Source: Flavobacteriales bacterium (GTDB taxonomy: Bacteria; Bacteroidota; Bacteroidia; Flavobacteriales_F; PHOS-HE28). From it: a DNA stretch of 64,000 nt. The translations under genes were made by a program, and so were the position numbers. The stretch spans positions 3,576,069-3,640,068 of the forward strand of contig JADJOI010000003.1 in NCBI GenBank assembly GCA_016713875.1, in the 5' to 3' direction. Positions 1-54,216 of the stretch are shown here, one piece after another. Positions within the stretch are counted from its first letter, which is position 1. The number at the start of each line of letters is the position of its first letter. The notes beneath the pieces were generated by a model that did no database searches, had not been told where the DNA came from, and saw nothing but the letters and a program-made list of their open reading frames with translations.

Positions 1-556
1 ATCGATCGCTGGATCCACTACGCGGGCTGGTGCGACAAGTACCAGGCGCTCTTCAGCAGCGTGAACCCCACGAACAGTTCGCACTTCAACTTCAGCGTGC
101 AGGAACCCACCGGTGTGGTGGGCGTGATGGCTCCTGCCGATAGCGCGTTGCTCGGGCTGGTGAGCGTGATCGCGCCGGTGATCGCGGGCGGCAACACGTG
201 CATCGTTGTGGCAAGCGAGAACATGCCCTTGCCTGCCGTCACCTTCACCGAAGTGCTGGCTACGAGCGATCTGCCCGGCGGCGTTGTGAACCTGATGTCA
301 GGTTTCCGCAGCGAGTTGCTCAAGCCGCTCGTTGCGCACATGGACATCAACGCGCTAGTCGTGGCGGGTGTTTCCAAAGAGGAGCGCGATGCTCGACAAT
401 GAAGCTACCTGCAACCTGAAGCGCATGGTGTACCCGAAGGTGAGCGATTGGAGCAGCGACGATGCGAGAAGCCCCTACATGATCCTCGACACGCAGGAGG
501 TGAAGACCACCTGGCATCCGATCGAGCGCGGGCAGGGAGGGGGTGGGGGGTATTGA
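1..556 (+). pseudogene. aldehyde dehydrogenase family fragment (window starts mid-gene; truncated/frameshifted)
   Basis: Frame 1 (1-402) has the ALDH NAD-binding region (PVIAGGNTCIVVASENMPLP, GGVVNLMSGFRSELLKPLVAHMDINALVV) but stops after ~130 aa. A second frame (368-556) carries an ALDH-like C-terminal tail ending TTWHPIERGQGGGGGY*. Most of the catalytic domain is missing. Confidence 0.5.
508..556 (+). repeat. 48-bp direct repeat, copy 1 (3' end of the ALDH reading frame)
   Basis: cacctggcatccgatcgagcgcgggcagggagggggtggggggtattga; repeated at 1288-1335 with 4 mismatches. Confidence 0.85.
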
Positions 557-569
557 TCTCTTGACCTTC

Positions 570-878
570 ATGCCCAAGCTTTACGAGTACTTCGGAATGG
601 TGTTCCTGATGTTCAGCAATGAACACAGCCCCATCCATGTACATGTTCGGTATGGCAGCTACGAGTCAGTGATCGAGTTGATCATGCTTGAAGGGGAGTT
701 GGTAAAGGTCGTGTTCAGGAAGCTGGGCAATAAACGAGCGCTCCCGGTCGCTCAGCAATGTGAGGCGGAACTGTTCGTTCGTGCCAAGGCGAAGGACATC
801 ATCCGCAAGTGGAATGATTACTTTGTGTTGAACAAGCGGGTCACGCCCGAACACATCACCAAACGCATCAAGGGATGA
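570..878 (+). CDS. DUF4160 domain protein
   Basis: MFSNEHSPIHVHV motif typical of DUF4160. Overlaps the downstream DUF2442 gene by 4 bp. Confidence 0.7.
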   Translation: MPKLYEYFGMVFLMFSNEHSPIHVHVRYGSYESVIELIMLEGELVKVVFRKLGNKRALPVAQQCEAELFVRAKAKDIIRKWNDYFVLNKRVTPEHITKRIKG

Positions 879-1246
879 CCATCCCAGAGAAGGTCCATAT
901 CAAGAGCGCCAAATACGTGGGCGACTACCGCATCGCGTTCCGCTTCACGGATGGTCATACCACCGAGGTCGATTTCCACGCCTTCCTTACGGCACCAGGC
1001 CAGAACCCCATGGCCACACAGTTCCTGGATGTGACCCGGTTCAAGGGCTTTCACATCGAACAACGTGCGGACATCGTCTGGGGTGATTGGGAGATGTGTT
1101 TCCCATTGGCTGCTTTGTATGTTGGTGATCTTGGCGTGGATTCCCTCGGAAAGAAGCGGGGGGCACGCGTTGGCACCGGCCCACGCCGCTCGATAGGCCG
1201 TCGCAGTGGAGTGAGGAGGAAGACCACAAAAGCTGCGGTGAAATGA
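875..1246 (+). CDS. DUF2442 domain protein (partner of DUF4160)
   Basis: IKSAKYVGDYRIAFRFTDGHTTEVDF pattern. Conserved DUF4160-DUF2442 gene pair with ATGA overlap. The C-terminal extent is uncertain. Confidence 0.6.
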   Translation: MTIPEKVHIKSAKYVGDYRIAFRFTDGHTTEVDFHAFLTAPGQNPMATQFLDVTRFKGFHIEQRADIVWGDWEMCFPLAALYVGDLGVDSLGKKRGARVGTGPRRSIGRRSGVRRKTTKAAVK

Positions 1247-1287
1247 GTGAGAGCGGGTCTTCCAACAACACGCTGGGAACCACGATC

Positions 1288-1335
1288 ACCTGGCACCCGA
1301 TCGAGCGGGGGCAGGGAGGGGGTGGCGGATATTGA
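1288..1335 (+). repeat. 48-bp direct repeat, copy 2 (orphan ALDH 3' end including stop)
   Basis: Encodes ...TWHPIERGQGGGGGY* again, without an upstream gene body. Confidence 0.85.
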
Positions 1336-1339
1336 GCAC

Positions 1340-1675
1340 ATGGAGCTCCTTGGTTGGTCCGACTTCGAGAAGGTCCATCTGTGCGTGGGCACCGTGCTTT
1401 CCGCGGAGGGCCTGCCCAATGCGCGCAGGCCGGCCTACGTCCTCACCATCGACTTCGGACCGCACGGGGTGAAGCGCAGTAGCGCGCAGATCACGGTACA
1501 CTACACCAAGGACGAACTGGTGGGACGACAAGTGGTGGCGGTGATCAACTTCCCGCCCAAGCAGGTCGGCAGCGTGATGAGCGAATGCCTGATCACTGGA
1601 TTTCCAGATGCGAACGGCGATATCGTGCTCACCGCCGTGGAGCGGCCGCTGCCGAACGGGGCCCGGTTGGCGTGA
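1340..1675 (+). CDS. tRNA-binding protein (CsaA/EMAP-like)
   Basis: MELLGWSDFEKVHLCVGTVLSAEGLPNARRPAYVLTIDFGP...RQVVAVINFPPKQVGSVMSECLITGF matches the CsaA/tRNA-binding OB fold. Confidence 0.75.
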   Translation: MELLGWSDFEKVHLCVGTVLSAEGLPNARRPAYVLTIDFGPHGVKRSSAQITVHYTKDELVGRQVVAVINFPPKQVGSVMSECLITGFPDANGDIVLTAVERPLPNGARLA

Positions 1676-1740
1676 GCCATCGAACTTCCTCCATGGCATG
1701 GCCGTTGAACGGTTCGCGGGCCTTCCCGCGCGGACGACCC

Positions 1741-4351: not shown

Positions 4352-5593
4352 ATGCGCCGCACGACACTCGCCTTCCCCCTGCTCATCTCCCTTCCGCTGC
4401 TCGCCCAGCCCCAGCTCGACAACCCCGGCTTCGAGTCCTGGCAGAACGTGGGCACCGGCACCGAGGAGCCCACCGAATGGAGCTCGGTGAAGACCAGCGA
4501 CGGCGGTACGCTGATCAACAACCTGGCGCCGCAGATGGTGTGGCGCAGCAGCGATGCGCACAGCGGGTCGTACTCGGTGAACATCCGCACGGTGTCGTCC
4601 TTTCTGGGCCCCGCCACCGGCCTGCTCACCAACGGACGCGTGCATGCCGAACTACAGGTGGAGAACAGCTACGTGTTCACCGACACGCTGAACGGGGACT
4701 GGAGCACGGCGTGCGCCTCGCGGCCGGACAGCCTGATCGGCTGGTACAAGTACACCCCGCAGCCGGGCGACCAGGCGGTGATCGGTGTGCTGATGCATGT
4801 GGATGATGCCAAGCTGCCGGCCTTCGGGACTGAACTGAACTGGGTGGGCGGTGCGGACTGGACCTCGGCGAGCGCCACGGTGGGCGCATGGACGCGTTTC
4901 GCCACGCCCTTCGTGTACACGGACAACCGCGAGCCCGAGCACATCCTGATGATCATGACCAGCGGTGACAGCACCTCGAGCCAGGTGGGCACGGAGGTGT
5001 GGTTCGACGACCTGGCCATGATCTACAATCTGGCCGCTGTGCCGGACGCGGCGGTGGCCTATGTGACGGCGCAGGATGGGTTCGACCTGAACGTGGCGTA
5101 CAGCACGGGCGGCGTGCCCACGGCGGCCCTGGACTTCACTGCCGAACTGAGCGATGCGAACGGTGATTTCAGCGCCCCGGTGGCCATCGGCACGCTGAAC
5201 AGCGACCAGCCCACGGGTGTGATCGCCTGCACCGTTCCGGCCGGCACGGTCCCGGGCACGGGGTACCGCATCCGCGTCACCACCCCCTCGCCCTATTACG
5301 CGCCGATCGATTCGGGCATCGTGGTGGAGGTGAGCACGGGGATCGCCCTGAGCTCGGTGCCGCAGGATTGGCGGGTCTGGGCCGATGCCGAGGCGCTGTG
5401 GCTTGATCTGCGCGGAAGCGCGCTTCAGGCCGAGCGGTTCGAGGTGGTGGATGCCCGCGGGGCGCTGGTGGCCGCAGGCCGGGCGACGCCCGGGATGCTG
5501 CGCCCGGTGGTGACCTCCGGTATACCCGGCCTGTACGTGGTGCGGCTCCACCATGCCGATGGCGTGGCCTCCGTGCGGCTGATCCGGTCGTGA
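4352..5593 (+). CDS. T9SS-sorted secreted protein (PCMD-like N-terminal domain)
   Basis: Signal peptide, LDNPGFESW start, C-terminal ...PGLYVVRLHHADGVASVRLIRS Por CTD. Confidence 0.55.
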   Translation: MRRTTLAFPLLISLPLLAQPQLDNPGFESWQNVGTGTEEPTEWSSVKTSDGGTLINNLAPQMVWRSSDAHSGSYSVNIRTVSSFLGPATGLLTNGRVHAELQVENSYVFTDTLNGDWSTACASRPDSLIGWYKYTPQPGDQAVIGVLMHVDDAKLPAFGTELNWVGGADWTSASATVGAWTRFATPFVYTDNREPEHILMIMTSGDSTSSQVGTEVWFDDLAMIYNLAAVPDAAVAYVTAQDGFDLNVAYSTGGVPTAALDFTAELSDANGDFSAPVAIGTLNSDQPTGVIACTVPAGTVPGTGYRIRVTTPSPYYAPIDSGIVVEVSTGIALSSVPQDWRVWADAEALWLDLRGSALQAERFEVVDARGALVAAGRATPGMLRPVVTSGIPGLYVVRLHHADGVASVRLIRS

Positions 5594-17070: not shown

Positions 17071-17469
17071 GGGTGCAGGTATTCGCCGCCGAAGGTATCC
17101 AGTGGTGGCGGGCAGGCGCCTGCTGTCGATCAGCTGCCAGCGGTGCCGGTGGCCGCCGCGCGCATCTATCTTCTTAGCCCCGACTTTGACGAGAATGATG
17201 GCGATCCGAAGAACCCCAGCCCCCGTGGGCGGGCTGGTGCCCCTGGGCCCAAGGCGTGTGGCCCATCGCGTGGCGCGGCCCGCATGCCGTGCTCAAATGG
17301 GTGTACACAATACATGCGAAGCCGCCCATGGTGGCTTGCGCATCCATTGGAATGTGAGCCAGGCCGACATCGTGCGCGCCATGGAGGCGCACGCGGCCTT
17401 CAGCCGGGCGCCTCCGTGCAGCTCGGCCCACTGGTGCGCCGGCGCATCCTGCAACGCAAGTGGAGCTTC

Positions 17470-17560
17470 GAGCGCGGCAGCTTCTTCTACCGCATCGAGG
17501 GCGCACGGCCCGGACGCGAATGGAGCATGGGCGAGCAGGAGCCCCTGGAGCGGCTGAAAG
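17470..17560 (+). repeat. ~90-bp direct repeat, copy 1
   Basis: ttcgagcgcggcagcttcttc...gaatggagcatgggcgagcagga...ctggagcgg; about 85% identical to 18012-18100. Confidence 0.8.
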
Positions 17561-17680
17561 CGGTGGAAGAAGCGTGAAGCGGTGACCCCGGCTCACGCGC
17601 CCAATGCACGCAACGCCTCATACACCCGTTGCGTGGGCAGGTGCTCATTTGCTCACCTGCATGCGCATGGCAGGAGCGCG

Positions 17681-17983
17681 ATGATCGCGCACCTTGCGCC
17701 CATGCCCGCATGGCTCAGCGAAGCACCGCGGTCCATCACGCTCCGCGTGCATGTGCAGCCCGGCGCCAAGCGCACCGAGGTGGCTGGCACGCATGGCGAT
17801 GCGCTCAAGATCCGCCTGGCCGCTCCGCCGGTGGATGGGCAGGCGAACGAAGCGCTCCTCTCCTATCTAGCGGAGCAATTCGGCGTGCCCAAGCGGCAGG
17901 TGGAATTGGTGAGCGGGCACGCGAGCCGCAGCAAGCGCGTGCTGGTGATTGAACCTGTGCACAGGCCGGATCGGGGGTGGTGA
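17681..17983 (+). CDS. DUF167/YggU family protein
   Basis: ITLRVHVQPGAKRTEVAGTHGDALKIRLAAPPVDGQANEALLSYLAEQFGVPKRQVELVSGHASRSKRVLV. Confidence 0.75.
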   Translation: MIAHLAPMPAWLSEAPRSITLRVHVQPGAKRTEVAGTHGDALKIRLAAPPVDGQANEALLSYLAEQFGVPKRQVELVSGHASRSKRVLVIEPVHRPDRGW

Positions 17984-18011
17984 AGCCGCCTGTCTGCGCA
18001 GGCCGTGCCGC

Positions 18012-18100
18012 TTCGAACGCGGCAGCTTCTTCGGCCGCATCCAAGGCGCGAGGCCCGGACGCGAATGGAGCATGGGCGAGCAGGAATTGCTGGAGCGGTT
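18012..18100 (+). repeat. ~90-bp direct repeat, copy 2
   Basis: See 17470-17560. Confidence 0.8.
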
Positions 18101-24129: not shown

Positions 24130-24716
24130 TCACACTATCGGATGCCATCGTCGCGGCGGACATTGTGCAGCAAGCTTTCCGCGCGATCGGGCAAGAGGAT
24201 AGCGCCTACACGTACTTGCATCGCATGGTATGGCTGCAGGACAGCCTGACCAACGTGAACAACTTGTACAAGGTGCAAGGCATGACCTTCGAGCAGGAAC
24301 TGAAGGACCACGAGGATGCCAAATTGAAAGCCGAAGCCTCCGCCGCCCGCTCCCGCAACATCCAGTTCGGCATCATCGCCCTCATCGTTCTCACACTGGG
24401 CATCTTCCTGCTGGTGTTCAGCCGTACGGCGGTCGTTGGCGCCAAGGCCATCAAGAACCTCTCGCCGATCGCGCTGCTGCTCTTCTTCGAGTTCATCAAT
24501 CTGCTGCTGCATCCGTTCTTGGACCGCATCACCAACCACTCACCGATCCTGATGCTGTTGTGCATGGCCGCGATCGCAGGGGCTGCTGATCCCGCTGCAC
24601 CACCGCATGGAGAAGCTCATCACCAATATGCTTGTATCGAAGAACAACCGCGTACGATTGGAGGCGGCGAGAAGGACGATCGAGGAGTTGGAGTCCAACA
24701 CCGACAGCGCCCAATG
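24130..24716 (+). pseudogene. TPR/transmembrane paralog A: 5'-truncated by the IS, 1 frameshift
   Basis: Reading frame is open from the IS right end. Contains the conserved TM and C-terminal module (RSRNIQFGIIALIV...FFEFINLLLHPFLDRITNHSPILMLLCMAAIAG). An extra G near 24585 shifts the ...LLIPLHHRMEKLITNMLVSKNNRVRLEAARRTIEELESNTDSAQ* tail. Confidence 0.65.
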
Positions 24717-24720
24717 AGGA

Positions 24721-26146
24721 AGTACATCACGATCGCCCGGCCGGTCGTCTTTGTGTTAGCAAGCATGGTTCACCTCGTGCTATCTGCGCAGCAGTTCGTC
24801 AGTCAACCGCGGTTCGATTCCTTGCGAACGCGCTATGACTTGTCACGGCCGCCGCAAGAGCGTTATTGGATCACCAGCAACCATCGGTGGGCATGTTGGA
24901 ACAGAGGGCTCAAGCAGGAGGCCCGACAGTCTGCCAAAGAGGAGCTTGAACTTGCCGAGCAACTGCAGGTGGACACTTTGCTCGCCAACGCCTACGACGA
25001 CCTGAGCGGAAGCTTTATCGGTTCATCGGAAAGCGCGCTGCAATTGAAGTACTCGCAGAAGGCGCTGGAACATGCGAATGCTTCGGGAAGCCATGACTAT
25101 ATCGGCACCGTGCAGAAGGGCTTTGCCTCCATCTATAAGCCGTTGGGAGACTTTCCCCTGGCCAGACTACTTGAGGAAGGCGTTGACCAACCTGCGCCGA
25201 CCATCGCAGATCAATCGGGCGTGTTGTCATATGAGCGATTGTTTCAGGTTGATGGGGCAAGCCGATTCCGCGCTGTACTGGGCGCAGCGGTCGAACATTG
25301 TGACCAACCCGGCTGAGGATACGTACGGCTACGCGCTCGTATTATGTGCCTTGGGCGGCCTATGCGGCCAAGGGCGAACGCGACTTGGCCGAGGTGCATT
25401 TCAAGCGTTGCATCGAGGTGGCTGAGTCGTTCAAGGTGATGGTTCCGCTCTATGCAGCGCTGGTTGCCCGTGGGCGCATGAAGCTGGAGGCGGAGGACGT
25501 GGAGGGAGCGATCGCCGATGGCCGACGGGGCTTGAAGGTGAGCCAGGACGGGGACGATCTGGTCGGTATGATCGAGTCAACAGAGCTGCTGCGTGATGCC
25601 TTCAAACGCATTGGTCGCCTCGATAGCGCATTCCACTTCTTCACATTTAAAGCGGCCTATGACGACAGTTTGAGGAACGTGACCAACCTGAACAAGCTAC
25701 AGAACATGGCCTTCGAGCAGGAGCTGAAGGATCGAGAGGATGCGAAGCTGAAGGCCGAAGCCGCAGAGGCCCGCTCCCGCAACATCCAGTTCGGCATCAT
25801 CGCCCTCATCGTGATCACGCTGGGCATCTTCCTGCTGGTGTTCAGCCGAACGGCGGTGGGGGCGCCAAGGCCATCAAGAACCCTCTCGCTCATCGCGCTG
25901 CTGCTCTTCTTCGAGTTCATCAATCTGCTGCTGCATCCGTTCTTGGACCGCATCACCAACCACTCGCCGATCCTCATGCTGCTTTGCATGGCCGCCATAG
26001 CAGGGTTGTTGATCCCACTGCACCACCGCATGGAGAAGCTCATCACCAACATGCTTGTATCGAAGAACAACCGCGTACGATTGGAAGCGGCGCGGCGGAC
26101 GCATCGAAGAGTTGGAAGCAAGGCCAACAGACACGGGCCCGAGATG
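24721..26146 (+). pseudogene. TPR/transmembrane paralog B, at least 3 frameshifts
   Basis: Signal peptide MRKYITIARPVVFVLASMVHLVLSAQ. The TPR-like body is spread over 3 frames. Conserved TM/C-terminal module at 25700-26100. The tail RRT(I)EELE is shifted. Confidence 0.6.
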
Positions 26147-26185
26147 ATGGGAATGATGCGTAACACACCTCAAGGACGATCGATC

Positions 26186-27917
26186 ATGAAGGTGGTCCGG
26201 CTGCTCTGTGCGGTTGTCATCATGAGCACCATCGGAGATCTGCGTGCACAGCCTTTCGATACGATTCAAACGCGGTTCAGCACGCTGCCGTTGGAAGAAC
26301 TGATCGTACGGGAAAAAAGCGACCACCGACGCGCGTGAGAAGGTCGCGCTGCTCTCCAGGCTCGTAATGAAGTACCTGTACCTCAACAAGCAGGACGAAT
26401 GCACGAGCACCTCGATCCGCACGCTTGAGGTGGCCGAACCCACCAGGAACGACACGCTTATCGGCAGGGCGCATCTGGCCATCGGGTCGGCATTCACCAT
26501 CGCCAATGACGTGAACGGGGCATTGAAGCATTACAACTTATCGCTCGACCACTACACAAGTGCTGGTGACAGTATTTGGATGGGCGCGGTGTGCAAGGAG
26601 CTCGCCGTGCTCTATCAACGCGTGGGCGACAATGATGGCTCCATGCGCTACATGCGCAAAGCGCTGGCTTTGGGCATGCCCCCCGGGATCCGTTCGCGAG
26701 GGCTGTCAACAATAGCCCGGGTCTTCATGGACCGTGGCGAGCTCGATTCCGCGCTGTACTACACCAAGCAAGTGGAAATGGTCGGTTCACCAGGCGTGGA
26801 CCCATGGACCTACACGTATTCGAACGGTGCGCTTGCCGCAGTGTATGCGGCCCGGAAAGAGAACCATCTGGCCGAGCTGCATTTCAAGCGCACGATCGCC
26901 GCTGCTGATTCGTTCCAACTACCGCTTCCCCTCGTTCAGTTCGCTTCGGAGTATGCTTCCTTGCTCATGGAACAGGGCCGCACAGCGGAGGCGCAATCCA
27001 TCGCGCAATTGGCTTTCCGAGCCGCAGAAGGGGTGAGCAACCCAGGGATGGCGCAGAGAGCTGCCGAAGCCCTGGCCGATGCATACCATGCGAACGGCAG
27101 GACGGATAGCGCGTTCCATTACGCGAAGCTCTGCATCTCATTTCGCGACAGCGTTATCTCCACGCAGAACCGCAGCCAGCTCCAGAGCCAGCTCTTCGCG
27201 CAGCAGCTCAAGGACATGGAGGATGCCAAATTGCGCGCGGAGGAAGTCGCGACCCGCTCCCGCAACATCCAGTTCGGCATCATCGCCCTCATCGTTATCA
27301 CGCTGGGCATCTTCCTGCTGGTGTTCAGCCGCACGGCGGTGGTCGGCGCCAAGGCGATCAAGAACCTTTCGCTCATCGCGCTGCTGCTCTTCTTTGAGTT
27401 CATCAATCTACTGGTGCATCCTGTACTGGGTGAACTCACGCACCACTCGCCGTTGCTGATGCTGCTGTGCATGGCCGCCATCGCCGCGTTGCTCATCCCG
27501 CTGCACCACCGCATGGAGAAGCTCATCACCAACATGCTCGTGAGCAAGAACAACCGGGTGCGGTTGGAGGCGGCGCGGCGGACGATCGAGGAGTTGGAGG
27601 GGGCGGGGAAGGGGAGGCCGATGCGGCGGGTTGAACACGGACTGGTCGTGCTCCACTGTCGAGCAATCAGGGATCACAGTTCCCGTTCGAACTGCGGAGC
27701 GAAATGCTCCTCTCAACGGGCTGCGATCGCATCCAACCGTTCGAGAATGCGGCGCAGCAGCACCACGGTCTCCTCACTGGCCGCTGAGGAAGGACTGGTT
27801 TGTTCAGGTTCGCGCCCATGCTTCAAGGCTTCGCGCTGTGCCAGGATCCGGTCGCGGAACTCGTGCGCGTCGATGATGCCGATCAACCGCATGTCGTGCG
27901 CTTGTCCCTGGCTCTGA
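26186..27917 (+). pseudogene. TPR/transmembrane paralog C, frameshift near 26320 and unresolved 3' end
   Basis: Signal peptide MKVVRLLCAVVIMSTIGDLRAQ in one frame; MKYLYLNKQDE...TPR body...RSRNIQFGIIALIVITLGIFLLVF...LHHRMEKLITNMLVSKNNRVRLEAARRTIEELE in the next. The ORF then overruns into the opposite-strand gene, which is likely spurious. Confidence 0.6.
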
Positions 27918-28252: not shown

Positions 28253-28339
28253 GCGCCTTTTCGTGTTTCTGTGGTGGCCAATGCCGAATGTACCGGTTCC
28301 CACCAGTCGGGTCGCTTGTTGTCCGCTAGCCTTGCACTG

Positions 28340-28440
28340 AAGAGGATCGTTGAAAGCGGCGAGAAGGACGATCGAGGAGTTGGAGTCCACCTCCGCCACG
28401 GCTTCTGCGGATGAAAGGGCGGGAAAGGGTGAGGCGCCGT
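28340..28440 (+). repeat. orphan 3' end of the TPR/TM paralog family (…AARRTIEELESTSATASADERAGKGEAP*)
   Basis: Shares aagaaggacgatcgaggagttggag with the 3' ends at 24670, 26095 and 27580. No gene body upstream. Confidence 0.6.
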
Positions 28441-28479
28441 AGATCCGGTCAGTGGTACTATGCCCGTGCCGTTGGTGGT

Positions 28480-30543: not shown

Positions 30544-31416
30544 TCAACGGACCATGACGCGCTCAACGAACCATTCACCTCGACCCGAACTGAACTGCAA
30601 GACATACGCGCCTGGGCGATCGAACGTAATGACCTGTTCGCCACGGACGGTCTGCGCGCTCAATTGCCGTCCGGTCGCGTCGAAGACGGTCATGGAGCCT
30701 TCAACCCCAGTAATGAAGACCGGCTCTCCGCGGGAGGCCAGGGAAGGTCTGATCCACGATCCGGCCTCTTCACGCTCTCCGATCCCGACCCCCAGCGTGC
30801 ATTGCGCGACCAATGGGTTCTGCCAGGTGATATCCGTATCCTCATAACACCGAAGACCCGCGAAGACCTCGCCATCGCAGACGCCATAGAGCCAGGCGAA
30901 CGGCGCGATCAGATTTCCGAGCCGCTCCGTGACCGTACCTCCGAAACCGAAGCTGGACCACTGCCTGGACTCCACGCTCACTTCCAGGCTGCGCAGCGAA
31001 AGTCCATCCACCCAGATCAGGCTCGTATCCAGCACGGTCCAATCGAGTGTATCCTGCTGACCGATCTGCACCACCGGAGTGGACCACACATCACCGATGG
31101 CCGCGTTCCATCGAAAGACCAGATGATGCTGGCCTGTGCTTGATCCGAAGTAGAACAGGGAGTCCTGCGACTCCGAGAGGAACTGGGCAAGTTGATGACA
31201 GCCGAACCAACCCTCGTTGATCTGGAGCTTCTTGCATATTCGGCCCTCGATGAGCGTGTCGCCCGTCACCTCGATCACCATCAGGGCGGTATCTGGACCG
31301 CCCCAATGAGCCTGCTTGTAGGTCCATTTCGCACCGGTCGGAGCGAACGTCGTCTGCGCATGCATCGAGGTCGCGACAAGAGCGGCGCTGAGCGTGAGGA
31401 TCTGCCCGTTGGTCAT
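30544..31416 (-). CDS. T9SS-sorted secreted protein (paralog of 12078-13526)
   Basis: Signal peptide MTNGQILTLSAALVATSMHAQ. FAPTGAKWTY and CDGE..LRCY motifs shared with 12078-13526. C-terminal ...GAYVLQFSSGRGEWFVERVMVR. Confidence 0.6.
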   Translation of the reverse strand: MTNGQILTLSAALVATSMHAQTTFAPTGAKWTYKQAHWGGPDTALMVIEVTGDTLIEGRICKKLQINEGWFGCHQLAQFLSESQDSLFYFGSSTGQHHLVFRWNAAIGDVWSTPVVQIGQQDTLDWTVLDTSLIWVDGLSLRSLEVSVESRQWSSFGFGGTVTERLGNLIAPFAWLYGVCDGEVFAGLRCYEDTDITWQNPLVAQCTLGVGIGEREEAGSWIRPSLASRGEPVFITGVEGSMTVFDATGRQLSAQTVRGEQVITFDRPGAYVLQFSSGRGEWFVERVMVR

Positions 31417-31494
31417 GGCATGGTGAAGATAGACCAACTGGACGCGTTTCCAGGGCGAAGTGCTGCCCGGGATCAGGCCGGACCCCCCCACCCC

Positions 31495-31620
31495 CTCCAA
31501 CGCCACCTTCGCCCCATGCACAGCCTGCCCCGCGCATTTGGCGGGGTTCTTCACGACCTGTCCCGCCTTAGCGGGATCCAGCACGCTGATCCGCAAGGTG
31601 CCTGACACATCGCGGACGTT
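31495..31620 (-). repeat. mfd 3'-end-like fragment F5 (orphan, hairpin-containing)
   Basis: Minus-strand translation ...GTLRISVLDPAKAGQVVKNPAKCAGQAVHGAKVALEGVGG is homologous to the Mfd C-terminus (KFKVYEKAGTLRVSVQD...). Contains the stems ccccgcgcatttggcgggg and tcccgcc..gcggga. Confidence 0.7.
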
Positions 31621-31630
31621 CGGGAGCCTT

Positions 31631-32002
31631 TAGAGCAGATGCAGCGTGAGTTCGTTCTTGAGCTTCTTGAAGTGCTTGTCTTCCGTGACGAGCGGTACTC
31701 CGGAGCCGGATGGCGGTCGCCGCGATCAGCGCATCGGCGAGTTTCATTCGATAACGAGCACGGAAGTCCATGGCTGCTGACTTGATCCCGTCGTCGAGGT
31801 CCACGATCTTGATGAATGCCAGGTCGGCGGTCACTTTCGCACGCTCATGGGCCGTGTAGCCATGAAAGCCGAGTATTTCGATCTCGGTGACGAAGGAGAC
31901 GTGGATGATCGTGTCTTCGAGCAGCGGCGTTGTGCGCGCATCGCCGTCCCAGTGGTGGATCAATACGTTGGTGTCGACCAGCAACGACTTAGCGGTCATC
32001 AC
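31631..32002 (-). pseudogene. vapC: PIN-domain toxin VapC, 1 frameshift near 31690
   Basis: MMTAKSLLVDTNVLIHH...ADALIAATAIRL, then a frame switch to PLVTEDKHFKKLKNELTLHLL*. Confidence 0.65.
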
Positions 32003-32213
32003 GCATGGTCTTCAAATACTCCTTCATACGCTCCGCTATGCCGGGGATCATCCCGGAGGAGCGCTTGGCATCGTAGCCTTTCTGCTTCTGCCGTTTGGAT
32101 GTTGTTCTCGGGGTCGTCTTTCGTGCGTATACGGCCTGCGGGTCGCTCACCACGGTAAGCGCCTTCTCCGAAGTCTGCTTGGGTTTCTTTGGTCGCTTTG
32201 AGCTGGTGGCCAT
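31989..32213 (-). CDS. vapB: VapB-type antitoxin (small basic protein overlapping vapC start)
   Basis: 74 aa. Ends MIPGIAERMKEYLKTMRDDR with a 14-bp overlap of the vapC start codon region. Confidence 0.45.
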   Translation of the reverse strand: MATSSKRPKKPKQTSEKALTVVSDPQAVYARKTTPRTTSKRQKQKGYDAKRSSGMIPGIAERMKEYLKTMRDDR

Positions 32214-32261
32214 GGATCGAAGATAGGTCAGGCCACCTCCTTCACCCCCACCACACTCTCC

Positions 32262-32395
32262 ATTGCCGCCTTCGCCCCTTCGATGTTCTTCACGACCTGT
32301 CCCGCCTCGGCGGGATCCTGCACGCTGATCAGCATCGTTCCCGCCTTCTCGTACACCTTGAATCGGCATGGTTTGCCCTCGGCAAGTTCTCAAGT
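32262..32395 (-). repeat. mfd 3'-end-like fragment F4
   Basis: Encodes ...RFKVYEKAGTMLISVQDPAEAGQVVKNIEGAKAAMESVV...* ; ~85% nt identity to F3 over the core. Confidence 0.7.
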
Positions 32396-32413
32396 GTGAA
32401 TGACCGGCAGGCC

Positions 32414-32977
32414 TCACCGGCGGATCTCGAATCCAGTCTCCGTCGATACAGTGTCAACCATTGGTGCAAGTCGGATCCGATCCTTACGGGTAAAGACCGT
32501 GTCAACTCCCCATTCACCCAACTCACCTGTATTCATCGAAACAACGAGTGTGTCGTTAGTCTCCACGAGGAACGCGCTGCGTTCATAGACGCCGCCATGG
32601 TCGTCGTTCTCGATGAGGGAGAACCAATGGGGCTGCTTCGAGCATCCATCGAAGAGGGTGAGCGTCAGATACCGCACCGCATGGTCGCACTCGGGAGAGC
32701 TGTTCAGCACGAGGAGTCCGATGCGAGATTCTCTTATGATGACCTTGCCTATGACCCACGCAGAATCACTTTCCGTCATTCTCCTGTCGTGGAGGGCATG
32801 GAACCCTTCCGCATCCAGGCGGATCCAACTCGGGTCGATCGCCTTGTCAACGTAATCCAGATCGAAGTGGCGTTCCGATATCTCGGGAACGAGCAAGAGC
32901 ACTTCGCAAAGGTCCTGTGGGGATGAGGGTAGGCGAGAAGCACAAGGTTGACCGAGCACGAGCGGCACACAGGTCAA
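32414..32977 (-). CDS. hypothetical protein (cargo between F3 and F4)
   Basis: Open frame with non-biased composition (…SAWVIGKVIIRESRIGLLVLNSSPECDHAVRYLTLTLFDG…). No family recognised. Start uncertain. Confidence 0.35.
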   Translation of the reverse strand: MTCVPLVLGQPCASRLPSSPQDLCEVLLLVPEISERHFDLDYVDKAIDPSWIRLDAEGFHALHDRRMTESDSAWVIGKVIIRESRIGLLVLNSSPECDHAVRYLTLTLFDGCSKQPHWFSLIENDDHGGVYERSAFLVETNDTLVVSMNTGELGEWGVDTVFTRKDRIRLAPMVDTVSTETGFEIRR

Positions 32978-33079
32978 TTAGGACAGGTAGGGCTTCATGC
33001 CAACTGGTTCAAGTATTGGTTGAACGATCTACGGCCCAAGTTCTTATGCTGCAACGTTCACCTCAACAACCGATTCCAT

Positions 33080-33270
33080 CGCCGCCTTCGCCCCTTCGAT
33101 GTTCTTCACGACCTGTCCCGCCTCGGCGGGATCCTGCACACTGATCCGCGACGTCCCCGCATTCTCGTACACCTTGAACCGTCGTGGTTGCGCCTGCGCG
33201 GCGCGCAGCAGCGCGTTGAAGCCAATGGCCTCAAAGAAGCCATACTTCCGGTCGGCAAAGGCTTCAGGCC
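33080..33270 (-). repeat. mfd 3'-end-like fragment F3 (longest)
   Basis: Encodes AFADRKYGFFEAIGFNALLRAARAQPRRFKVYENAGTSRISVQDPAEAGQVVKNIEGAKAAMESVVEVNVAA*. Aligns with Mfd ...GDGFNAVLRAVQAQPGKFKVYEKAGTLRVSVQDTKTLHEAKEVLGAVLVVPA*. Confidence 0.75.
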
Positions 33271-33563
33271 GCCTTGGCTGTCGCCAGTGGGATCTCCGCC
33301 AACTCCTTGCCTTTTCCTTTGAGCTCTTCTTCGATATCGAAATCGTCCTGTAACCCCAGCCAGAACTTGGCCGAATTACCGAAGTACTTGGAGAGGCGCA
33401 GGGCGGTATCCGCTGTGACGCGACGCTCGCCCTTGATGATCTGAGATACGCGCGTTTGCGGGATACTGATGTCCTTGGCCAGGCGGTAGGCCGTGATGCC
33501 CATGGGTACGAGGAACTCCTCTTCGAGCACAGTGCCGGGGTGGATGTTCGGGAGCTTCTTCAT
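33264..33563 (-). CDS. higA: HigA family antitoxin (XRE HTH)
   Basis: MKKLPNIHPGTVLEEEFLVPMGITAYRLAKDISIPQTRVSQIIKGERRVTADTALRLSKYFGNSAKFWLGLQ. Confidence 0.75.
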   Translation of the reverse strand: MKKLPNIHPGTVLEEEFLVPMGITAYRLAKDISIPQTRVSQIIKGERRVTADTALRLSKYFGNSAKFWLGLQDDFDIEEELKGKGKELAEIPLATAKAA

Positions 33564-33574
33564 GGGTGCTGATC

Positions 33575-33865
33575 TTAATGGTAGTCGATGATCTCCACTT
33601 CGTAGGCGTTGCCGCTTTGCCACTTGAAAATGATGCGCCACTGGTCGTTGATGCGCACGCTATAGAAGTCCTTCAGGCGGCCAGCCAGTTTCTCCAAGCG
33701 GTTGGCGGGTGGGACGCGCAGATCGGCGATGTCTTGGGCGTTGTTGATCATCCGGAGCTTTCTTCTGGCCGTTTCCTGGATCGTCGAAGGCAGTTTCCGC
33801 TGTGGATCACCGTTCCAGATCCCTTCTGTCACCTTCGATCCGAACGACCTGATCATGTCCGGCAA
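33575..33865 (-). CDS. higB: HigB-like toxin (RelE/ParE superfamily)
   Basis: ...RLKDFYSVRINDQWRIIFKWQSGNAYEVEIIDYH is a HigB C-terminal signature. Sits upstream of higA as usual for higBA. Confidence 0.7.
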   Translation of the reverse strand: MPDMIRSFGSKVTEGIWNGDPQRKLPSTIQETARRKLRMINNAQDIADLRVPPANRLEKLAGRLKDFYSVRINDQWRIIFKWQSGNAYEVEIIDYH

Positions 33866-33904
33866 ATATACTATCGCGTGGCGTCACTAGCAACTGCCAC
33901 CCCA

Positions 33905-33950
33905 CCACCCCACCACTCCCTCCATCGCCGCCTTCGCCGCGTGGATGATC
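33905..33950 (-). repeat. mfd 3'-end-like fragment F2 (short; tail only)
   Basis: Encodes ...IIHAAKAAMEGVVG..., matching the AAKAAMESVVG tails of F3 and F4. Confidence 0.5.
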
Positions 33951-33968
33951 TGACCGAAGTAAAGTGGC

Positions 33969-35005
33969 CTAGGTCTTCTTTCGTGTTGCGGACCTCCCCA
34001 TGGTAAGCGCTTTCCTTGCGCTCAACGGTGTTACGACCTTCTTGCCAGTACGAGCCTCCAATTCCAAGCGCGCCACCTTGGCCACGTTCCCACCTTGTCG
34101 CGCCACTTCTTTGTTGTCCTCGAAGGTCTCGGGCTCGGTGGCTTGTGAAATGTCCTTCGCGGATGCCTCGGCAAGCATGTTCAGGATCAGTTCCGTGTTG
34201 GTCATATTGTCGCGGAGGTTCTCCTTCTTCAGGCCCTTGAGCACCTTGTACTCCTTCGTGCTGTTCCCGCTCCACGCCTTGGTGATTATGTCCGTGAGCG
34301 TCGCGAAGTGCATGCCTTCCTTCATCCCGCGTTTCCTCCATTCATCGGTCAGCTCCTTGCGGATCTCGATGCTCTGTAGGGAGGTTCAAAGCACATCGTT
34401 CCGGCGGCGATGTATTGAAGTAGAGTATCAGTGATGCTTGCTCCCGTTCGACCATACGGCGTTGCTCCTAGGCCGGATACTTCGTTCCAGTATCCTTGCC
34501 TCGGAGCGCCTTGTCTGGTCATACGATAGCTGTGCACGCCATCCGTTCGATGTGCTTTGAACCTCCCTGGCCGCTGGTTGATCCAACTCTCCGAGTAGCC
34601 CAGCCGCAGGTATTGTTCAAGCGCACGGTCGATGGTGATCTCCGGATCCGCCATTTCATCCATCCGCTCCGATGCCACTTGTGCCAGCCATAGTTTGAAC
34701 GGCTCGGCCTTGGGTGAAGGGATGGATTGGATCAGCCGGAAGAGCTGCTCGGTGTCGGCCACATCGGTGAGGCGGAGCTTGCCGTCGTCGGCGGGCAATT
34801 TCAACTGTCCGATTTTATCGGACAGTTGGCTGCCTTCCTTCACTAGCTTGGTCTTCAGGTCGTTCCAGTACTTGCGAGGGCGCTCGTTACCGGTGAGGGC
34901 CGCTATCACATCGATGATGGAGAAGAACCACTTCTCCTGCTCCCCGTCCCACACGGTGCGAACCTGCTTCTCCTCGAAGACCTTGATGGCGTTCTTGTCG
35001 GTCAT
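33969..35005 (-). pseudogene. DinD-like / Bro-N domain DNA-damage-inducible protein, at least 2 frameshifts
   Basis: N-terminal part KVFEEKQVRTVWDGEQEKWFFSIIDVIAALTGNERPRKYWNDLKTKL (Bro-N/DinD-like). C-terminal part HFATLTDIITKAWSGNSTKEYKVLKGLKKENLRDNMTNTELILNMLAEA aligns with E. coli DinD residues ~150-200 but lies in a separate ORF. Confidence 0.55.
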
Positions 35006-35059
35006 GATAGGAGCAAGGTAGGGACTGCAAACGCTGCGGCGTTAAGCAGCGACGGTAAT

Positions 35060-35235
35060 GCCCACAACGGATTCCAACGCGTCCTTCGCCGCGTGCACAG
35101 CCTGCCCCGCGCATTTGGCGGGGTTCTTCACATCCTGCACACTGATCCTTAAGGTTCCCGCCTTCTCGTACACCTTGAAGCGTCGCGGTTGCGTCCCGCG
35201 ATTCGCCATCTCGCCTTGCTCGATCGCAAATCACT
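35060..35235 (-). repeat. mfd 3'-end-like fragment F1 (78 bp downstream of the real mfd stop)
   Basis: Encodes ...MANRGTQPRRFKVYEKAGTLRISVQDVKNPAKCAGQAVHAAKDALESVVGITVAA*. Confidence 0.75.
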
Positions 35236-35311
35236 GGATTTCGCCCTCGGTCGCTTTTGCGCCTGCGGTCCATGCCTTCGGCATTGCTCAACTTGCACCG
35301 GGCGCACTGCG

Positions 35312-38300
35312 CTAAGCGGGAACGACCAGCACTGCTCCCAGCACTTCTTTGGCCTCGTGCAAGGTCTTGGTGTCTTGAACACTTACCCTCAACGTACCGG
35401 CCTTTTCATACACTTTGAATTTCCCGGGTTGAGCCTGTACTGCTCTGAGCACCGCATTGAACCCATCCCCCTCGAAGAAGGGATGCTTCTGATCCGCAAT
35501 GAAGGTGCCGATGAGCGTGCCCTTCTTCAGCACCATCTTCGCCAGGCCCATGCGTTGGCCCAGCCAGCGGAGGCGGATGCCTTCCAGCAGTTCGTTCACC
35601 AGTTGCGGGATCGGACCGAAGCGATCGGTGACCTCCGTGGTGAACTTCTGCAGTTCCGCTTCGTCCTTGATGTCGTCCAGTCGGCGGTAGAGCGCGAGGC
35701 GTTCGGCGGTCTCGCTCACGTAGCTGTTGGGGATCAGCATCGTCAGGTCGGTCTCGATGATGCAGTCGTCGCTCTGGTCGCGACGTGATCCGCGGGCCAG
35801 CGCGTGGCTGCCTTCCTGCGCGTCGTCGAAGAGGTCCTTGAAGTGCTGGTCCTTCAGTTCGCGCACGGCCTCTTCGAGGATCTTGTGGTAGGTCTCGAAG
35901 CCGATGTCGTTGATGAAGCCGCTCTGCTCCGCGCCGAGCAGGTCGCCCGCGCCGCGGATGTCGAGGTCCTTCATGGCGATGTGGATGCCGCTGCCCAGGT
36001 CGCTGAACTGCTCGATCGCTTGCAGACGCTTGCGTGAGAGGTCAGGCAGCAAATGTGGACTTGGGGCCAGCAGGTAGCAGTACGCCTTCTTGTTGCTGCG
36101 GCCCACACGTCCGCGCAGTTGGTGCAGATCGCTAAGGCCAAAGTTCTGCGCTTCGTTCACGATGATGGTGTTGGCGTTCGGGATGTCGAGGCCGTTCTCC
36201 ACGATGGTCGTACACACGAGCACGTCGGTGTTGCCCTCGATGAAGTCGAGCATCACCTCTTCCAGCTTGTGCCCTTCCAGTTGACCGTGCCCCACGCCCA
36301 CACGCGCGCCGGGCACCAGCTTGCGGATCATGTCGGCGATGAACTCGATGTTCTTCACCTTGTCGTGCAGGAAGTACACCTGGCCGCCGCGTGAGAGTTC
36401 GTACTCGATCGCGCCACGGATCGTCACCTCATCGTACGGCTGCAACATCGTGGCCACCGGATAACGGTTCGGCGGCGGCGTGCTGATGATGCTGAGGTCG
36501 CGCGCGCCCATGAGACTGAACTGCAACGTGCGCGGGATGGGCGTGGCAGTGAGGGTGAGCGTGTCCACCGTGGCGCGCAGGGTCTTCAGCTTGTCCTTCA
36601 CGTTCACGCCGAACTTCTGCTCCTCGTCGATGATCAGCAGGCCGAGGTCCTTGTACACCACGTCCTTGCTCACCAATCGGTGCGTGCCGATGAGGATGTC
36701 GATCTTCCCTTCCTTCAGGTCTTTCAGGATCTGCGTTTGCTGCGCCGAAGAGCGGAAGCGGTTGATGTAGTCCACGCGCACGGGCAGGCCCTTCATGCGC
36801 GCCGAGAAGCTCTTCCAGTGTTGCAGCGCGAGGATGGTTGTTGGCACCAGCACCGCCGCCTGCTTGCCGTCGCACACCGCTTTGAACGCGGCGCGTATGG
36901 CAACTTCTGTCTTGCCGAAGCCCACATCGCCGCAGACCAGTCGATCCATGGGCACGCCCTTCTCCATATCGCGCTTCACGTCCTGCGTGGCCTTCAACTG
37001 GTCGGGCGTGTCCTCGTAGATGAAGCTCGCCTCCAACTCGTGCTGCAGGTAGTTGTCCGGCTGGAACGCGAAGCCCGGCTTGCTCTTGCGCTGGGCGTAG
37101 AGCTTGATCAGGTCGAAGGCCAGTGCCTTCACTTTCGCCTTGGTCTTTTCCTTCAGGTTCTTCCACGCGGGTGAACCGAGCTTGCTCACAGGCGGCGCAT
37201 TGCCACCTTCTTCACCGCTGTACTTGCTCACGCGGTGCAGGCTGTGGATGCCCACGTAGAGGATGTCGTTGTCGCGGTACTTCAGGCGGATCGCTTCCTG
37301 CATGCTTCCGCCGGCATCGATCGTTTCCAGTCCGCTGAACACACCAACGCCGTGATCGATGTGTACCACGAGGTCGCCGGGCTTCAGTTGCGTCAGCTCC
37401 TTCAGGGTGAGCGCCTGCGAGTTCTTACGGAAGCCCTCCTTCAGCCGGTAGCGGTGGTAACGCTCGAAGATCTGGTGGTCGGTGTAGAGCGCCAGCTTCA
37501 GCTCGGGATCGATGAAGCCCTCGTGCAGGTCGAGCACCAGCGGCGTGAAGGCCACCTCGTGCTCCATGTCGTTGAAGATGGTGTACAGCCGTTCGCTCTG
37601 CTTCGCGCTGTTGCACGCGATGAGATTCGTGTAGCCCGCGTTCTGCTTGTTGTGCAGGTCGCCGCTGAGCACCTTGAACTCCTTGGCGAACGTCGGTTGA
37701 GGCCGTTGCTGGAAGTCCACCACCACTTGCGCCTTACTGTCTTGCGTCGCGTTCCCGTCGCGTCGTTGCGCCGCTGCGGTTACTGCCTTCTCTGTGTCCT
37801 CTGCGTCTCGGTGGTGAATGGATCGCCCCCAGAACACCTTCCTGAACCCCAACGTCCCCTTGATCAACTCACCGTCCGTCGCCAGCAGCTCGTTCGGCGT
37901 GGGATGTTTCTCCTTCTCGGAAAGTCGCTCGTACGCTTCGCCCAGCAACTTCAACTGCTTTGTTGCCGCATCGCCGATGGCTTGCAGATCGCGGAGCCAG
38001 ATCACTGCATCCTCGGGTAGTTGCGCGAAGAAGTTCTGCTGGCGCGCGGTGTCCTCGTCCTGGAGGTCGGGCACGATCACCGCTTCGGCGAGGAACTCCA
38101 CGGTCAATTGGTCCTGCGGATCAAAGCGGCGCACGCTTTCCACGGTGTCGCCGTACAGCTCGATGCGGTAAGGCTTGTCGCTGCCGTAGCTGAACACGTC
38201 CACGATGCCGCCGCGGATGCTGAACTGCCCCGGCTCGTACACGAACTCCACGCGACTGAAGCCGGTCTCGTCCAACCACTCTTGCAGCGTGTCGATCGGC

Positions 38301-38860
38301 AGCTCCTCGTGACGCTTCACGGTGAGCGTGTTGCTCATCATCTCCTCCTGGCCCATCACGAGCGGCACCAGTGCTTCGGGGTAGGTGACGATGATGAGCT
38401 TGTTGGTGATCGGTGAATGGGAGTTGGTGAATGGGGAATGCGCATTCGCACCATTCGCCATTCGCCATTCGATATTCACCCTCATCAACGCTTCCAACAC
38501 TTCCGTCCTTGTGACGCGTTCACCGTCGTGGTGGCCTTCCGGATCGTACGGCGATCGCGAGGGTGCGGGATAGAAGAGCATGTCTTCATCCTTCTTCGCA
38601 TGACGGCCATCCTTGTCCTTGCCACGTAGCGCTTCCAGGTCGTTGATGAAGTAGGCCGCTTCTTCCTTGTCGGTGAGCACGAACACATGCACGCCGCCGC
38701 GCTGCTCGATGACCGACGCGGCGATCAGCGCTTGCGCCGAACCGATGGTGCCCGCGATCTGCACGCGCGCGGAATCTGGTTGCAGGCCTTCGGCGATGCG
38801 CGCGACGCGTGGGTCGTTGCGGTAGAGGGTGAGTAGGTCGGGGAGGGAGGTCAAAGGCAT
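35312..38860 (-). CDS. mfd: transcription-repair coupling factor
   Basis: 1182 aa, intact. UvrB-interaction region, DEAD/DEAH helicase motifs (GDVGFGKTEVA, LIIDEEQKFG), TRCF domain. Confidence 0.95.
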   Translation of the reverse strand: MPLTSLPDLLTLYRNDPRVARIAEGLQPDSARVQIAGTIGSAQALIAASVIEQRGGVHVFVLTDKEEAAYFINDLEALRGKDKDGRHAKKDEDMLFYPAPSRSPYDPEGHHDGERVTRTEVLEALMRVNIEWRMANGANAHSPFTNSHSPITNKLIIVTYPEALVPLVMGQEEMMSNTLTVKRHEELPIDTLQEWLDETGFSRVEFVYEPGQFSIRGGIVDVFSYGSDKPYRIELYGDTVESVRRFDPQDQLTVEFLAEAVIVPDLQDEDTARQQNFFAQLPEDAVIWLRDLQAIGDAATKQLKLLGEAYERLSEKEKHPTPNELLATDGELIKGTLGFRKVFWGRSIHHRDAEDTEKAVTAAAQRRDGNATQDSKAQVVVDFQQRPQPTFAKEFKVLSGDLHNKQNAGYTNLIACNSAKQSERLYTIFNDMEHEVAFTPLVLDLHEGFIDPELKLALYTDHQIFERYHRYRLKEGFRKNSQALTLKELTQLKPGDLVVHIDHGVGVFSGLETIDAGGSMQEAIRLKYRDNDILYVGIHSLHRVSKYSGEEGGNAPPVSKLGSPAWKNLKEKTKAKVKALAFDLIKLYAQRKSKPGFAFQPDNYLQHELEASFIYEDTPDQLKATQDVKRDMEKGVPMDRLVCGDVGFGKTEVAIRAAFKAVCDGKQAAVLVPTTILALQHWKSFSARMKGLPVRVDYINRFRSSAQQTQILKDLKEGKIDILIGTHRLVSKDVVYKDLGLLIIDEEQKFGVNVKDKLKTLRATVDTLTLTATPIPRTLQFSLMGARDLSIISTPPPNRYPVATMLQPYDEVTIRGAIEYELSRGGQVYFLHDKVKNIEFIADMIRKLVPGARVGVGHGQLEGHKLEEVMLDFIEGNTDVLVCTTIVENGLDIPNANTIIVNEAQNFGLSDLHQLRGRVGRSNKKAYCYLLAPSPHLLPDLSRKRLQAIEQFSDLGSGIHIAMKDLDIRGAGDLLGAEQSGFINDIGFETYHKILEEAVRELKDQHFKDLFDDAQEGSHALARGSRRDQSDDCIIETDLTMLIPNSYVSETAERLALYRRLDDIKDEAELQKFTTEVTDRFGPIPQLVNELLEGIRLRWLGQRMGLAKMVLKKGTLIGTFIADQKHPFFEGDGFNAVLRAVQAQPGKFKVYEKAGTLRVSVQDTKTLHEAKEVLGAVLVVPA

Positions 38861-54215: not shown

Positions 54216-54216
54216 C

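Follow-up and report, generated by a model that had tools for sequence, protein, structure and literature searches.

A predicted toxin–antitoxin cassette between two copies of a conserved gene end, an arrangement found at several genes in Flavobacteriales

Integrative elements that enter the 3' end of a gene and supply a replacement end include the tRNA and tmRNA islands, the tycheposon-type arrays and the elements e14 and phage 21 in icd. Integron arrays are built of promoter-less, co-oriented and packed small cassettes, many of them toxin–antitoxin (TA) pairs, each followed by a repeat unit, and the orphan toxin–immunity arrays of cdiA, rhs and mafB are thought to grow by homologous recombination that displaces the old modules. 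In addition, the minimal mobile elements of Neisseria and the core defence hotspots hold variable cargo between conserved genes without mobility genes. The locus described here, compared below with each of these systems, opens a stretch of 64,000 nt of contig JADJOI010000003.1 from a Flavobacteriales bacterium (the window, whose positions are used throughout). There, a pair of DUF4160 and DUF2442 genes lies between two copies of the 3' end, or tail, of an ALDH-like gene, ahead of a gene for a CsaA-like protein with a tRNA-binding domain.

Regarding the gene-end islands, the target gene is likewise intact, its displaced 3' end lies downstream as a direct repeat with mostly synonymous differences, and arrays occur; direct repeats of the target gene 3' end, as in attL and attR, are present at the ALDH site. 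However, no integrase was found in or near the inserts, which are gene pairs of 0.6-0.8 kb without an element backbone, the limits of the repeat follow the conservation between species, and the second copy is a translated-looking mini-open reading frame (mini-ORF). Integron arrays resemble the locus in their packed promoter-less cassettes with a repeat unit and in the placing of new cassettes beside an anchoring site; nevertheless, the repeat is here the coding end of a host gene and not a structured attC, and an integron was rejected, as there is no attC-like hairpin and neither IntI nor attI among the annotated neighbours. The cdiA, rhs and mafB arrays also contain repeated pieces from a conserved region of the upstream gene, distributed over a series of small modules, but there the repeat provides the 5' homology for a new C-terminal toxin domain within one protein. 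Here it is a complete 3' end with its own stop and the cassettes are separate, independent genes, for which reason an orphan toxin–immunity array was discarded. The Neisseria elements and the core defence hotspots share the cargo at fixed sites, with exchange attributed to homologous recombination; to our knowledge, they have not been described with a duplicated gene end or with mini-ORFs. No description of gene-end duplication around TA cassettes was found in the literature searched. The gene pair itself belongs to a known TA family, and the flanking architecture appears to be what is new relative to gene-end islands and cassette arrays.

For comparison, 80 orthologous ALDH-like loci were retrieved, each from another species, and the tail could be located in 76 of them (L016-L095). 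The direct repeat of the window covers 509-556 and 1288-1335 (48 nt), the two copies (T1 and T2) being identical at 44/48 positions, and all four differences (T/C, C/G, G/C and G/A) are synonymous; both copies encode TWHPIERGQGGGGGY followed by a TGA stop, with E = 1.2e-14 when one is searched locally by blastn-short. The initial annotation had reported a 48-bp duplication of the ALDH 3' end, which is borne out, as is the position of the second copy, while the first begins at 509 instead of 508. Upstream of 509 and 1288, about 20 of 33 positions still match in register (~61%, counted by eye on the printed sequence), and comparison with the loci L057 and L056 shows this extension to be the decayed 5' part of a duplication originally of about 75-80 nt. 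An assembly artefact is excluded for the repeat structure, since it is carried by 13 other assemblies of the same wastewater Flavobacteriales species, which are 99.8-99.9% identical over window positions 1-1700.

The ALDH-like gene was at first regarded as internally deleted, a claim that does not hold. The short form is evidently the normal architecture of this family because length, model coverage and C-terminus are conserved: among the best 120 matches in metagenome-assembled genomes of Flavobacteriales, the proteins have 314-341 aa and 77-88% identity, the family spans only positions 15-232 of the 461 of the Aldedh model, and the C-terminus ILDTQEVKTTWHPIE[RK]GQGGGGGY is almost invariant. 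The catalytic half of the Aldedh fold is missing from the family, whereas the C-terminus TTWHPIE[RK]GQGGGGGY is retained. What disrupts the gene in the window is a frameshift, where frame 1 stops at 402 and frame 2 spans 368-556, caused by the loss of 2 nt (GC) in a GCGCGC run near 383. This loss is seen only in this window, and the 13 other assemblies have an intact ORF of 320 aa, which makes the frameshift assembly- or strain-specific.

The interval between the repeat copies, 0.73 kb, holds the DUF4160 and DUF2442 genes, in this order, the antitoxin start overlapping the toxin stop in an ATGA at 875-878. Both domain matches exceed the Pfam gathering cut-offs (PF13711 = 23 bits; PF10387 = 23.9 bits), the second by a narrow margin (25.2 vs 23.9 bits). 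DUF4160/DUF2442 is known as dhiTA, which works as a type II TA system in Dickeya dadantii 3937 (PMC8198452), and this supports the first impression of a TA-like module. The pair has also been implicated in plasmid persistence in Thermus (PMC12724237), and DUF4160 is listed among the effector domains of the Menshen system (PMC12065111). By domains and gene order, the window pair is assigned to the dhiTA-type TA family: as in Dickeya (PMC8198452), the same two Pfam domains are found above threshold, the toxin comes first and the genes overlap by 4 nt (-3 distance). They differ in that an autoregulated promoter in the 100 bp ahead of the Dickeya operon drives it, whereas none was found by the window scan. 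With 13 nt between the ALDH stop and the toxin ATG, there would be no room for a promoter serving the toxin alone; no sigma-70-type promoter matched in 300-1800, in a scan that leaves out Bacteroidota-type promoters, and no plus-strand terminator-like site was found around the cassette. Expression of the cassette probably depends on the host operon.

The comparison of species shows both empty and filled sites. In four species (L018, L040, L044 and L060), the ALDH-like gene has a single tail and the CsaA-like ATG follows 2-4 nt past the stop, which is the organization that the initial annotation had expected of relatives without the insert. In other species, the gap between the two genes reaches 4.3 kb and, because of this range, the site behind the ALDH-like gene is considered an insertion hotspot. 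A second tail occurs in 16/76 loci, 0.58-1.37 kb downstream of the first, always with an insert in between; two copies without an insert, which would have indicated that the repeat is older than the gene pair, were therefore not seen in any of the 16. These inserts are DUF4160 + DUF2442 pairs in eight loci, a small basic protein of 57-68 aa with a PIN protein in seven, and another PIN pair in one, and two of the loci additionally carry a TIMP-like lipoprotein gene. As at least three unrelated cassette types share the duplication, this is a property of the site rather than of the DUF4160/DUF2442 cassette. The inserts consist of one to three small genes packed 3-53 nt from the stop, with no other element debris.

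The TIMP-like gene itself, lipoprotein-like, with 161-164 aa and a TIMP (PF00965) match, is seen downstream of the ALDH stop in several species (L095, at 4729-5214; also L024, L028, L039, L061, L063, L084 and L085). It is usually the first gene past the stop, with no second tail, and in L028 and L063 it follows the DUF4160/DUF2442 cassette.

Concerning the limits of the duplication, it ends on the right at the stop codon, with few exceptions. The apparent left boundary ranges from q70 to q115 of the last 150 nt and, within the sub-lineage of the window, L056 and L057, which share the junction ATGAGT, it shifts by decay from the 5' side; the original left boundary would lie about 70-80 nt before the gene end in most cassette lineages. 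The last 75 nt of the ALDH-like gene have a mean pairwise identity of 0.83-0.94 over the 76 species, compared to at most 0.61 upstream of this block and 0.27 directly past the stop. Boundaries that coincide with the edges of the conserved block are what a homology-limited process predicts. Moreover, the tail codons are strongly biased for a genome of 64% GC (GGT GGG GGT GGG GGG TAT TGA), the tyrosine codon being TAT in 72 species and TAC in 4; this bias, together with the run of G before the next start, indicates a constraint at the nucleotide level. The sense strand of the tail reads GGGCAGGGTGGGGGTGGGGGG, a G-run before the next gene that looks G-quadruplex-like or Shine-Dalgarno-like.

The second copy is found inside a mini-ORF. 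In the window, this ORF ends 4 nt before the CsaA-like ATG and has been annotated as a gene in 3/10 contig annotations (L005, L006 and L009). An ATG mini-ORF of 25-33 codons is present at 14/15 second tails, compared to a background of 3.4% of arbitrary stop codons in the same loci. Its ATG lies inside an ATGA in seven cases including the window, this ATGA overlapping the stop of the last cassette gene in the loci checked (window, L026 and L064), and the next ATG follows 3-19 nt past the mini-ORF stop in most loci. The ALDH-like gene, toxin, antitoxin, mini-ORF and CsaA-like gene are thus arranged as one packed, apparently co-translated chain. Comparing T1 with T2 in 11 loci, 32 synonymous and 14 non-synonymous differences were counted (pN/pS 0.135), where 28.5 non-synonymous would be expected if only the second copy had drifted (p = 1.5e-5), and some of the non-synonymous ones, R/K and A/F for instance, occur as natural alleles within the family. 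By these counts, the second copy is not decaying neutrally. It is usually nearest to the first copy of its own genome, with species-specific variants common to both, which suggests ongoing exchange between the tails. In the sister species L049 and L086, the second copies are 98% identical and the adjoining linker 79%.

Table 1. Features of the ALDH-like locus and of the further instances in the window.
Feature	Position	Strand	Remarks
ALDH-like gene, 3' part	1..556	+	Pfam Aldedh match; 320 aa in other assemblies
Tail copy 1 (T1), functional last 15 codons and stop of the ALDH-like gene	509..556	+	Inside the 75-nt block 482-556
DUF4160 gene (DhiT-like toxin)	570..878	+	PF13711, 40.5 bits, profile positions 1-65 of 65
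DUF2442 gene (DhiA-like antitoxin), basic C-terminal tail	875..1246	+	PF10387, 25.2 bits
30-codon mini-ORF (MSESGSSNNTLGTTITWHPIERGQGGGGGY, then stop)	1243..1335	+	ATG in ATGA 1243-1246, overlapping the DUF2442 stop
Tail copy 2 (T2), core	1288..1335	+	44/48 identical to T1; 1262-1287, decayed 5' part of the duplication
CsaA-like tRNA-binding-domain gene	1340..1675	+	PF01588 tRNA_bind; native downstream neighbour in empty-site species
Third instance, 76-nt gene end (FERGSFFYRIEGARPGREWSMGEQE..)	17465-17540, repeated 18010-18085	+	91% identical
Second instance, mfd array	30544..38860	-	mfd 35312-38860 and four further C-terminal coding-end copies
Extra mfd tails	35042-35209; ~33044-33240; ~32228-32376; ~31483-31608	-	Peptide motif search

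The same arrangement recurs at other genes. A cassette bounded by a duplicated gene end had also been noticed at mfd by the initial annotation, and there the array indeed contains four extra tails. The cassettes between them are Bro-N with a 118-aa protein, HigB/HigA, a 187-aa gene and an antitoxin-like gene with PIN, and the last tail copy abuts a host gene of 290 aa (30544-31416). Searching downstream with the gene's own 3' end returned no match, the functional tail having diverged from the copies. A profile of the mfd tails matched 112 protein clusters, all of them Mfd C-terminal fragments of 29-107 aa that end at the natural stop. The mfd site of another species (L177) holds a 3.7-kb McrBC system and a displaced tail. 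There, the functional mfd ends in GSKEVV and the displaced copy in GVTA, each before its stop, and 57 nt separate the latter from a downstream gene of 290 aa, which shares 65% identity with the one closing the window array. It seems that the insert supplied a different mfd end while the native GVTA end stayed with the downstream gene. The insert genes of L177 (3242-6838) encode a McrC-like protein of 347 aa and a McrB-like protein of 849 aa (EVE and nSTAND3 matches), oriented opposite to mfd. In addition, a Flavo-1-like repeat of ~100 nt lies directly past the mfd stop in L177 (3148-3250) and past the second tail in L102 (1679-1758, minus strand), and is also found in L016, L022, L075 and L100; its Rfam score, 29.8 bits, is below the gathering score of 42, and it is absent from the window.

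The third instance in the window brackets a DUF167/YggU gene (17582-17983). In 0.87 Mb of related loci, DUF4240 and RelE-like inserts are bracketed in this way by the end of a VOC/glyoxalase gene, and a ParE-type pair lies close by. In addition, 80 metagenomic loci with DUF4160 homologues were compared, four of them 75-97% identical to the window toxin and the remainder 41-52%: a flanking direct repeat was detected in 14/54 testable loci vs 9/226 control placements (Fisher p = 4.5e-6). In one of these, a gene ending in FEVGGQYRRNM, methylmalonyl-CoA-mutase-like when read by eye, has a duplication of 151 nt, where the start of the second-copy ORF overlaps the DUF2442 stop; in another, the duplicated end is a TypA/BipA-like C-terminus (also read by eye), with the second copy in an ATG mini-ORF. 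The target genes with unrelated tails number at least six, and the duplication ranges from 44 to 151 nt. Thus, of the common insertion mechanism at gene ends that was proposed for the ALDH and mfd sites, the recurrence at several genes stands, and the mechanism is a matter of interpretation.

Two of the DUF4160 loci differ in layout. In L109 (3367-4238), the DUF4160/DUF2442 cassette lies between two gene-end fragments with the FEVGGQYRRNM terminus and the upstream gene is a different one, so either the cassette may have moved together with its tails or the host gene may have been lost. Meanwhile, in L131 (601-2474) DUF4160/DUF2442 cassettes stand in tandem with copies of a MarR-like regulator gene in between; one of these copies is complete, the other has lost ~264 nt internally, and the repeat unit is larger than a gene tail.

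Regarding the movement of the cassette, both cassette types are scattered over the ALDH tree. The nearest relatives of the window cassette are in L056 and L057 (the DUF4160 proteins of the window and L056 share 97% amino-acid identity), and the ALDH genes of these two loci are not the ones nearest to that of the window. The cassette and the second tail are kept as a unit, with unrelated sequence past it (L028/L064; window/L056). This fits, without proving it, a unit that would be occasionally exchanged among related genomes and often lost. An exact lookup of the ALDH-like protein returned one contig only, of 1.4 kb, which ends 14 nt past the stop.

The reading that we tentatively prefer, with slightly less than even confidence, is that cassettes are added and lost by homology-driven recombination at conserved gene tails. 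Regarding the route and the direction of events, we infer that a DNA molecule with a tail and a cassette would recombine at the chromosomal tail, either by a Campbell-type single crossover of a circle or by two crossovers with two tails as arms, both of which would duplicate the homologous segment on the two sides of the insert. In the locus as it stands, the upstream copy completes the ALDH-like ORF and the downstream copy keeps the native CsaA-like junction. Repeated additions would lead to arrays, as at mfd, while recombination between tails would remove the cassette precisely, restore the empty site and homogenise the copies; TA addiction would counteract such loss, and selection for translation into the next gene would help to keep the second copy as an ORF.

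Homology-driven recombination is supported, firstly, because one-tail sites are empty in four species and two-tail sites (16/76) always have an insert, because three unrelated cassette types share the duplication at the ALDH site and because its edges match the stop codon and the edge of the conserved block. It is further supported by the travelling of the cassette and second tail as a unit, with differing affinities of cassette and ALDH gene, by T1/T2 differences that are mostly synonymous, partly natural alleles and accompanied by shared variants, and by the L177 insert, which brought another mfd end. The recurrence at three window loci, at the VOC gene and at distant DUF4160 pairs, and the excess of mini-ORFs at second tails over the background, point the same way. 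Moreover, no recombinase, inverted repeat, hairpin or viral carrier was found: recombinase domains are absent from the cassettes, from the mfd cassettes and from the genes within 8 kb of the ALDH site, as judged for the neighbours by precomputed Pfam annotation; the insert ends have no terminal inverted repeats; single-strand folds of the two tails and the mfd tail, on either strand, give z-scores of -1.5 to +1.0; and none of the viral contigs has the tail pattern or a relative of the toxin.

Several points weigh against this recombination scheme. For recombination of the RecA type, tails of 48-80 nt with 90-95% identity are short substrates, and the scheme accounts for how cassettes spread and are lost but not for how each new target gene was first occupied. 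Tails must sometimes have been acquired de novo, since related PIN cassettes follow the ALDH-like gene elsewhere and mfd here, and testing the mfd tails for a foreign origin returned only fragments of 29-107 aa and no full-length Mfd. In addition, a PIN-type (B-type) cassette or part of one is present in L047, L054 and L090 with the second tail undetected, and neither a transfer, an excision product nor a presence/absence polymorphism within the species was observed. Cassette identity between species largely tracks ALDH identity and is not higher (84.7% for both in L028/L064; 84.1% vs 82.9% in L056/L057), which would fit long vertical inheritance as well as exchange among relatives. Finally, translational coupling cannot be a general reason for tail retention, because tails lie 40-57 nt from the next ATG (L056 and L057), at 57 nt (L177) or before another cassette. 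As the cassette is no more conserved than the host gene, a very recent horizontal transfer is not supported.

Coupling is at the centre of the main rival, in which any illegitimate insertion duplicated the gene end in situ and the second copy was kept as the translation-initiation or coupling region of the next gene, for which it must be translated to hand on ribosomes. As a full account it is unlikely in our judgement, although selection for coupling is compatible with homology-driven recombination and the two do not exclude each other. The tight native junction of the ALDH-like and CsaA-like genes (2-4 nt), the ATGA-linked mini-ORF ending 4 nt before the CsaA-like ATG, the mini-ORFs at 14/15 second tails and the short distance to the next ATG at most of them are all as coupling would have them. 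So are the biased codons with the G-run just before the next start, the survival of only the 3' 48 nt of the copy in the window and the stronger conservation of the second copy relative to the adjoining linker in L049/L086. Nevertheless, coupling leaves unexplained why the boundary matches the conserved block in several cassette lineages, internal mfd tails are kept although another cassette comes next, the more distant tails of L056, L057 and L177 do not fit, and L047, L054 and L090 miss the second tail. Besides, from a constraint on RNA or coupling alone one would not expect the codon-aware pN/pS of 0.135.

Alternatively, the locus could be the remnant of an integrase element that entered a gene 3' end with a replacement end, the repeats being attL and attR and only the TA pair being left. 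Integrases directed at gene ends characteristically leave a duplicated 3' end whose differences are mostly synonymous, the L177 site combines a replaced mfd end with a 3.7-kb McrBC insert, and the arrays resemble decayed tandem islands. This origin is nonetheless quite improbable: in no assembly do the cassettes, or the Pfam-annotated genes up to 8 kb from the ALDH site, encode a recombinase domain, the 16 inserts are clean, with one to three small genes ATGA-linked to the second tail, at least six unrelated target genes would need as many integrase specificities, and no viral contig has a tail or cassette. A phage vehicle was discarded on this last ground.

Least probable is a target-site duplication by a transposition-like or staggered-break insertion, where two nicks 50-150 nt apart would be followed by capture of DNA or cDNA and fill-in. 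In its favour are the direct repeats without extra sequence, their variable length, as in target-primed or end-joining captures, and the repeat of L106, which continues beyond the stop and, read by eye, closes with an apparent terminator hairpin, as an mRNA would at its 3' end. These points are outweighed by the lack of terminal inverted repeats, transposase and reverse transcriptase, by boundaries at the stop and at the conserved-block edge in several independent cassette lineages, and by copies that differ through allele-like, mostly synonymous changes and were not identical at the start. Two other candidates were rejected: a transposon or insertion sequence, given the missing inverted repeats and transposase and the variable duplication length (44-151 nt), and a diversity-generating retroelement, as no reverse transcriptase domain lies nearby and the T1/T2 differences are not adenine-specific.

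Some further observations concern the surroundings. Small accessory modules abound in the wider region around the ALDH-like gene: in the same species, ~7 kb upstream of this gene and outside the window (L011, 1-918), three glyoxalase/VOC genes are clustered with further TA pairs, namely PIN_3/VapC50_C and ParE with an Unstab_antitox-like gene. Within the window, three segments of ~300 + 220 nt occur in 24240-30480, at spacings of 1424 and 1483 nt and with 78-84% identity; they resemble paralogous genes in tandem, one of which encodes a TPR protein (26367-27917), and a 49-nt motif encoding LEAARRTIEELE is present at 24658, 27564, 28350 and 30432. At 54117-55460, 7-nt units (GAGTAGC/GAGTGGC/GAGTACC) are repeated in tandem with a super-period of 21 nt, within and beside an ORF with a 23S_rRNA_IVP domain (54217-55818, minus strand), adjoining the gene of ribosomal protein L21 (53528-54418, minus strand).

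Taking homology-driven recombination further, conserved gene ends could be the attachment sites of a recombinase-independent, integron-like cassette platform that operates by homology at several genes, a generalization that is possible though doubtful. Each promoter-less TA or defence cassette would carry the last 15-50 codons of its host gene, and cassettes would be added beside the stop, excised and shuffled via the tail copies and expressed by read-through; as for the mini-ORF, we infer that the tail copy would be kept in translated form to relay ribosomes to the next gene. Such a platform would include the ALDH-like, mfd, VOC and other genes across Flavobacteriales, and DUF4160 pairs in other lineages as well.

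The movement of TA and defence modules that have no mobility genes of their own is poorly understood, and this locus gives a recurrent and searchable signature with three parts: a cassette at a stop codon, a duplicated conserved gene end and an ATG mini-ORF. Short 'hypothetical proteins' predicted from tail copies, which form 112 clusters for mfd alone, can be explained and annotated in this way. Should the tails indeed provide homology arms, it would be possible to predict from conserved gene ends where accessory genes land, and arrays of the mfd type would represent a new kind of cassette store.

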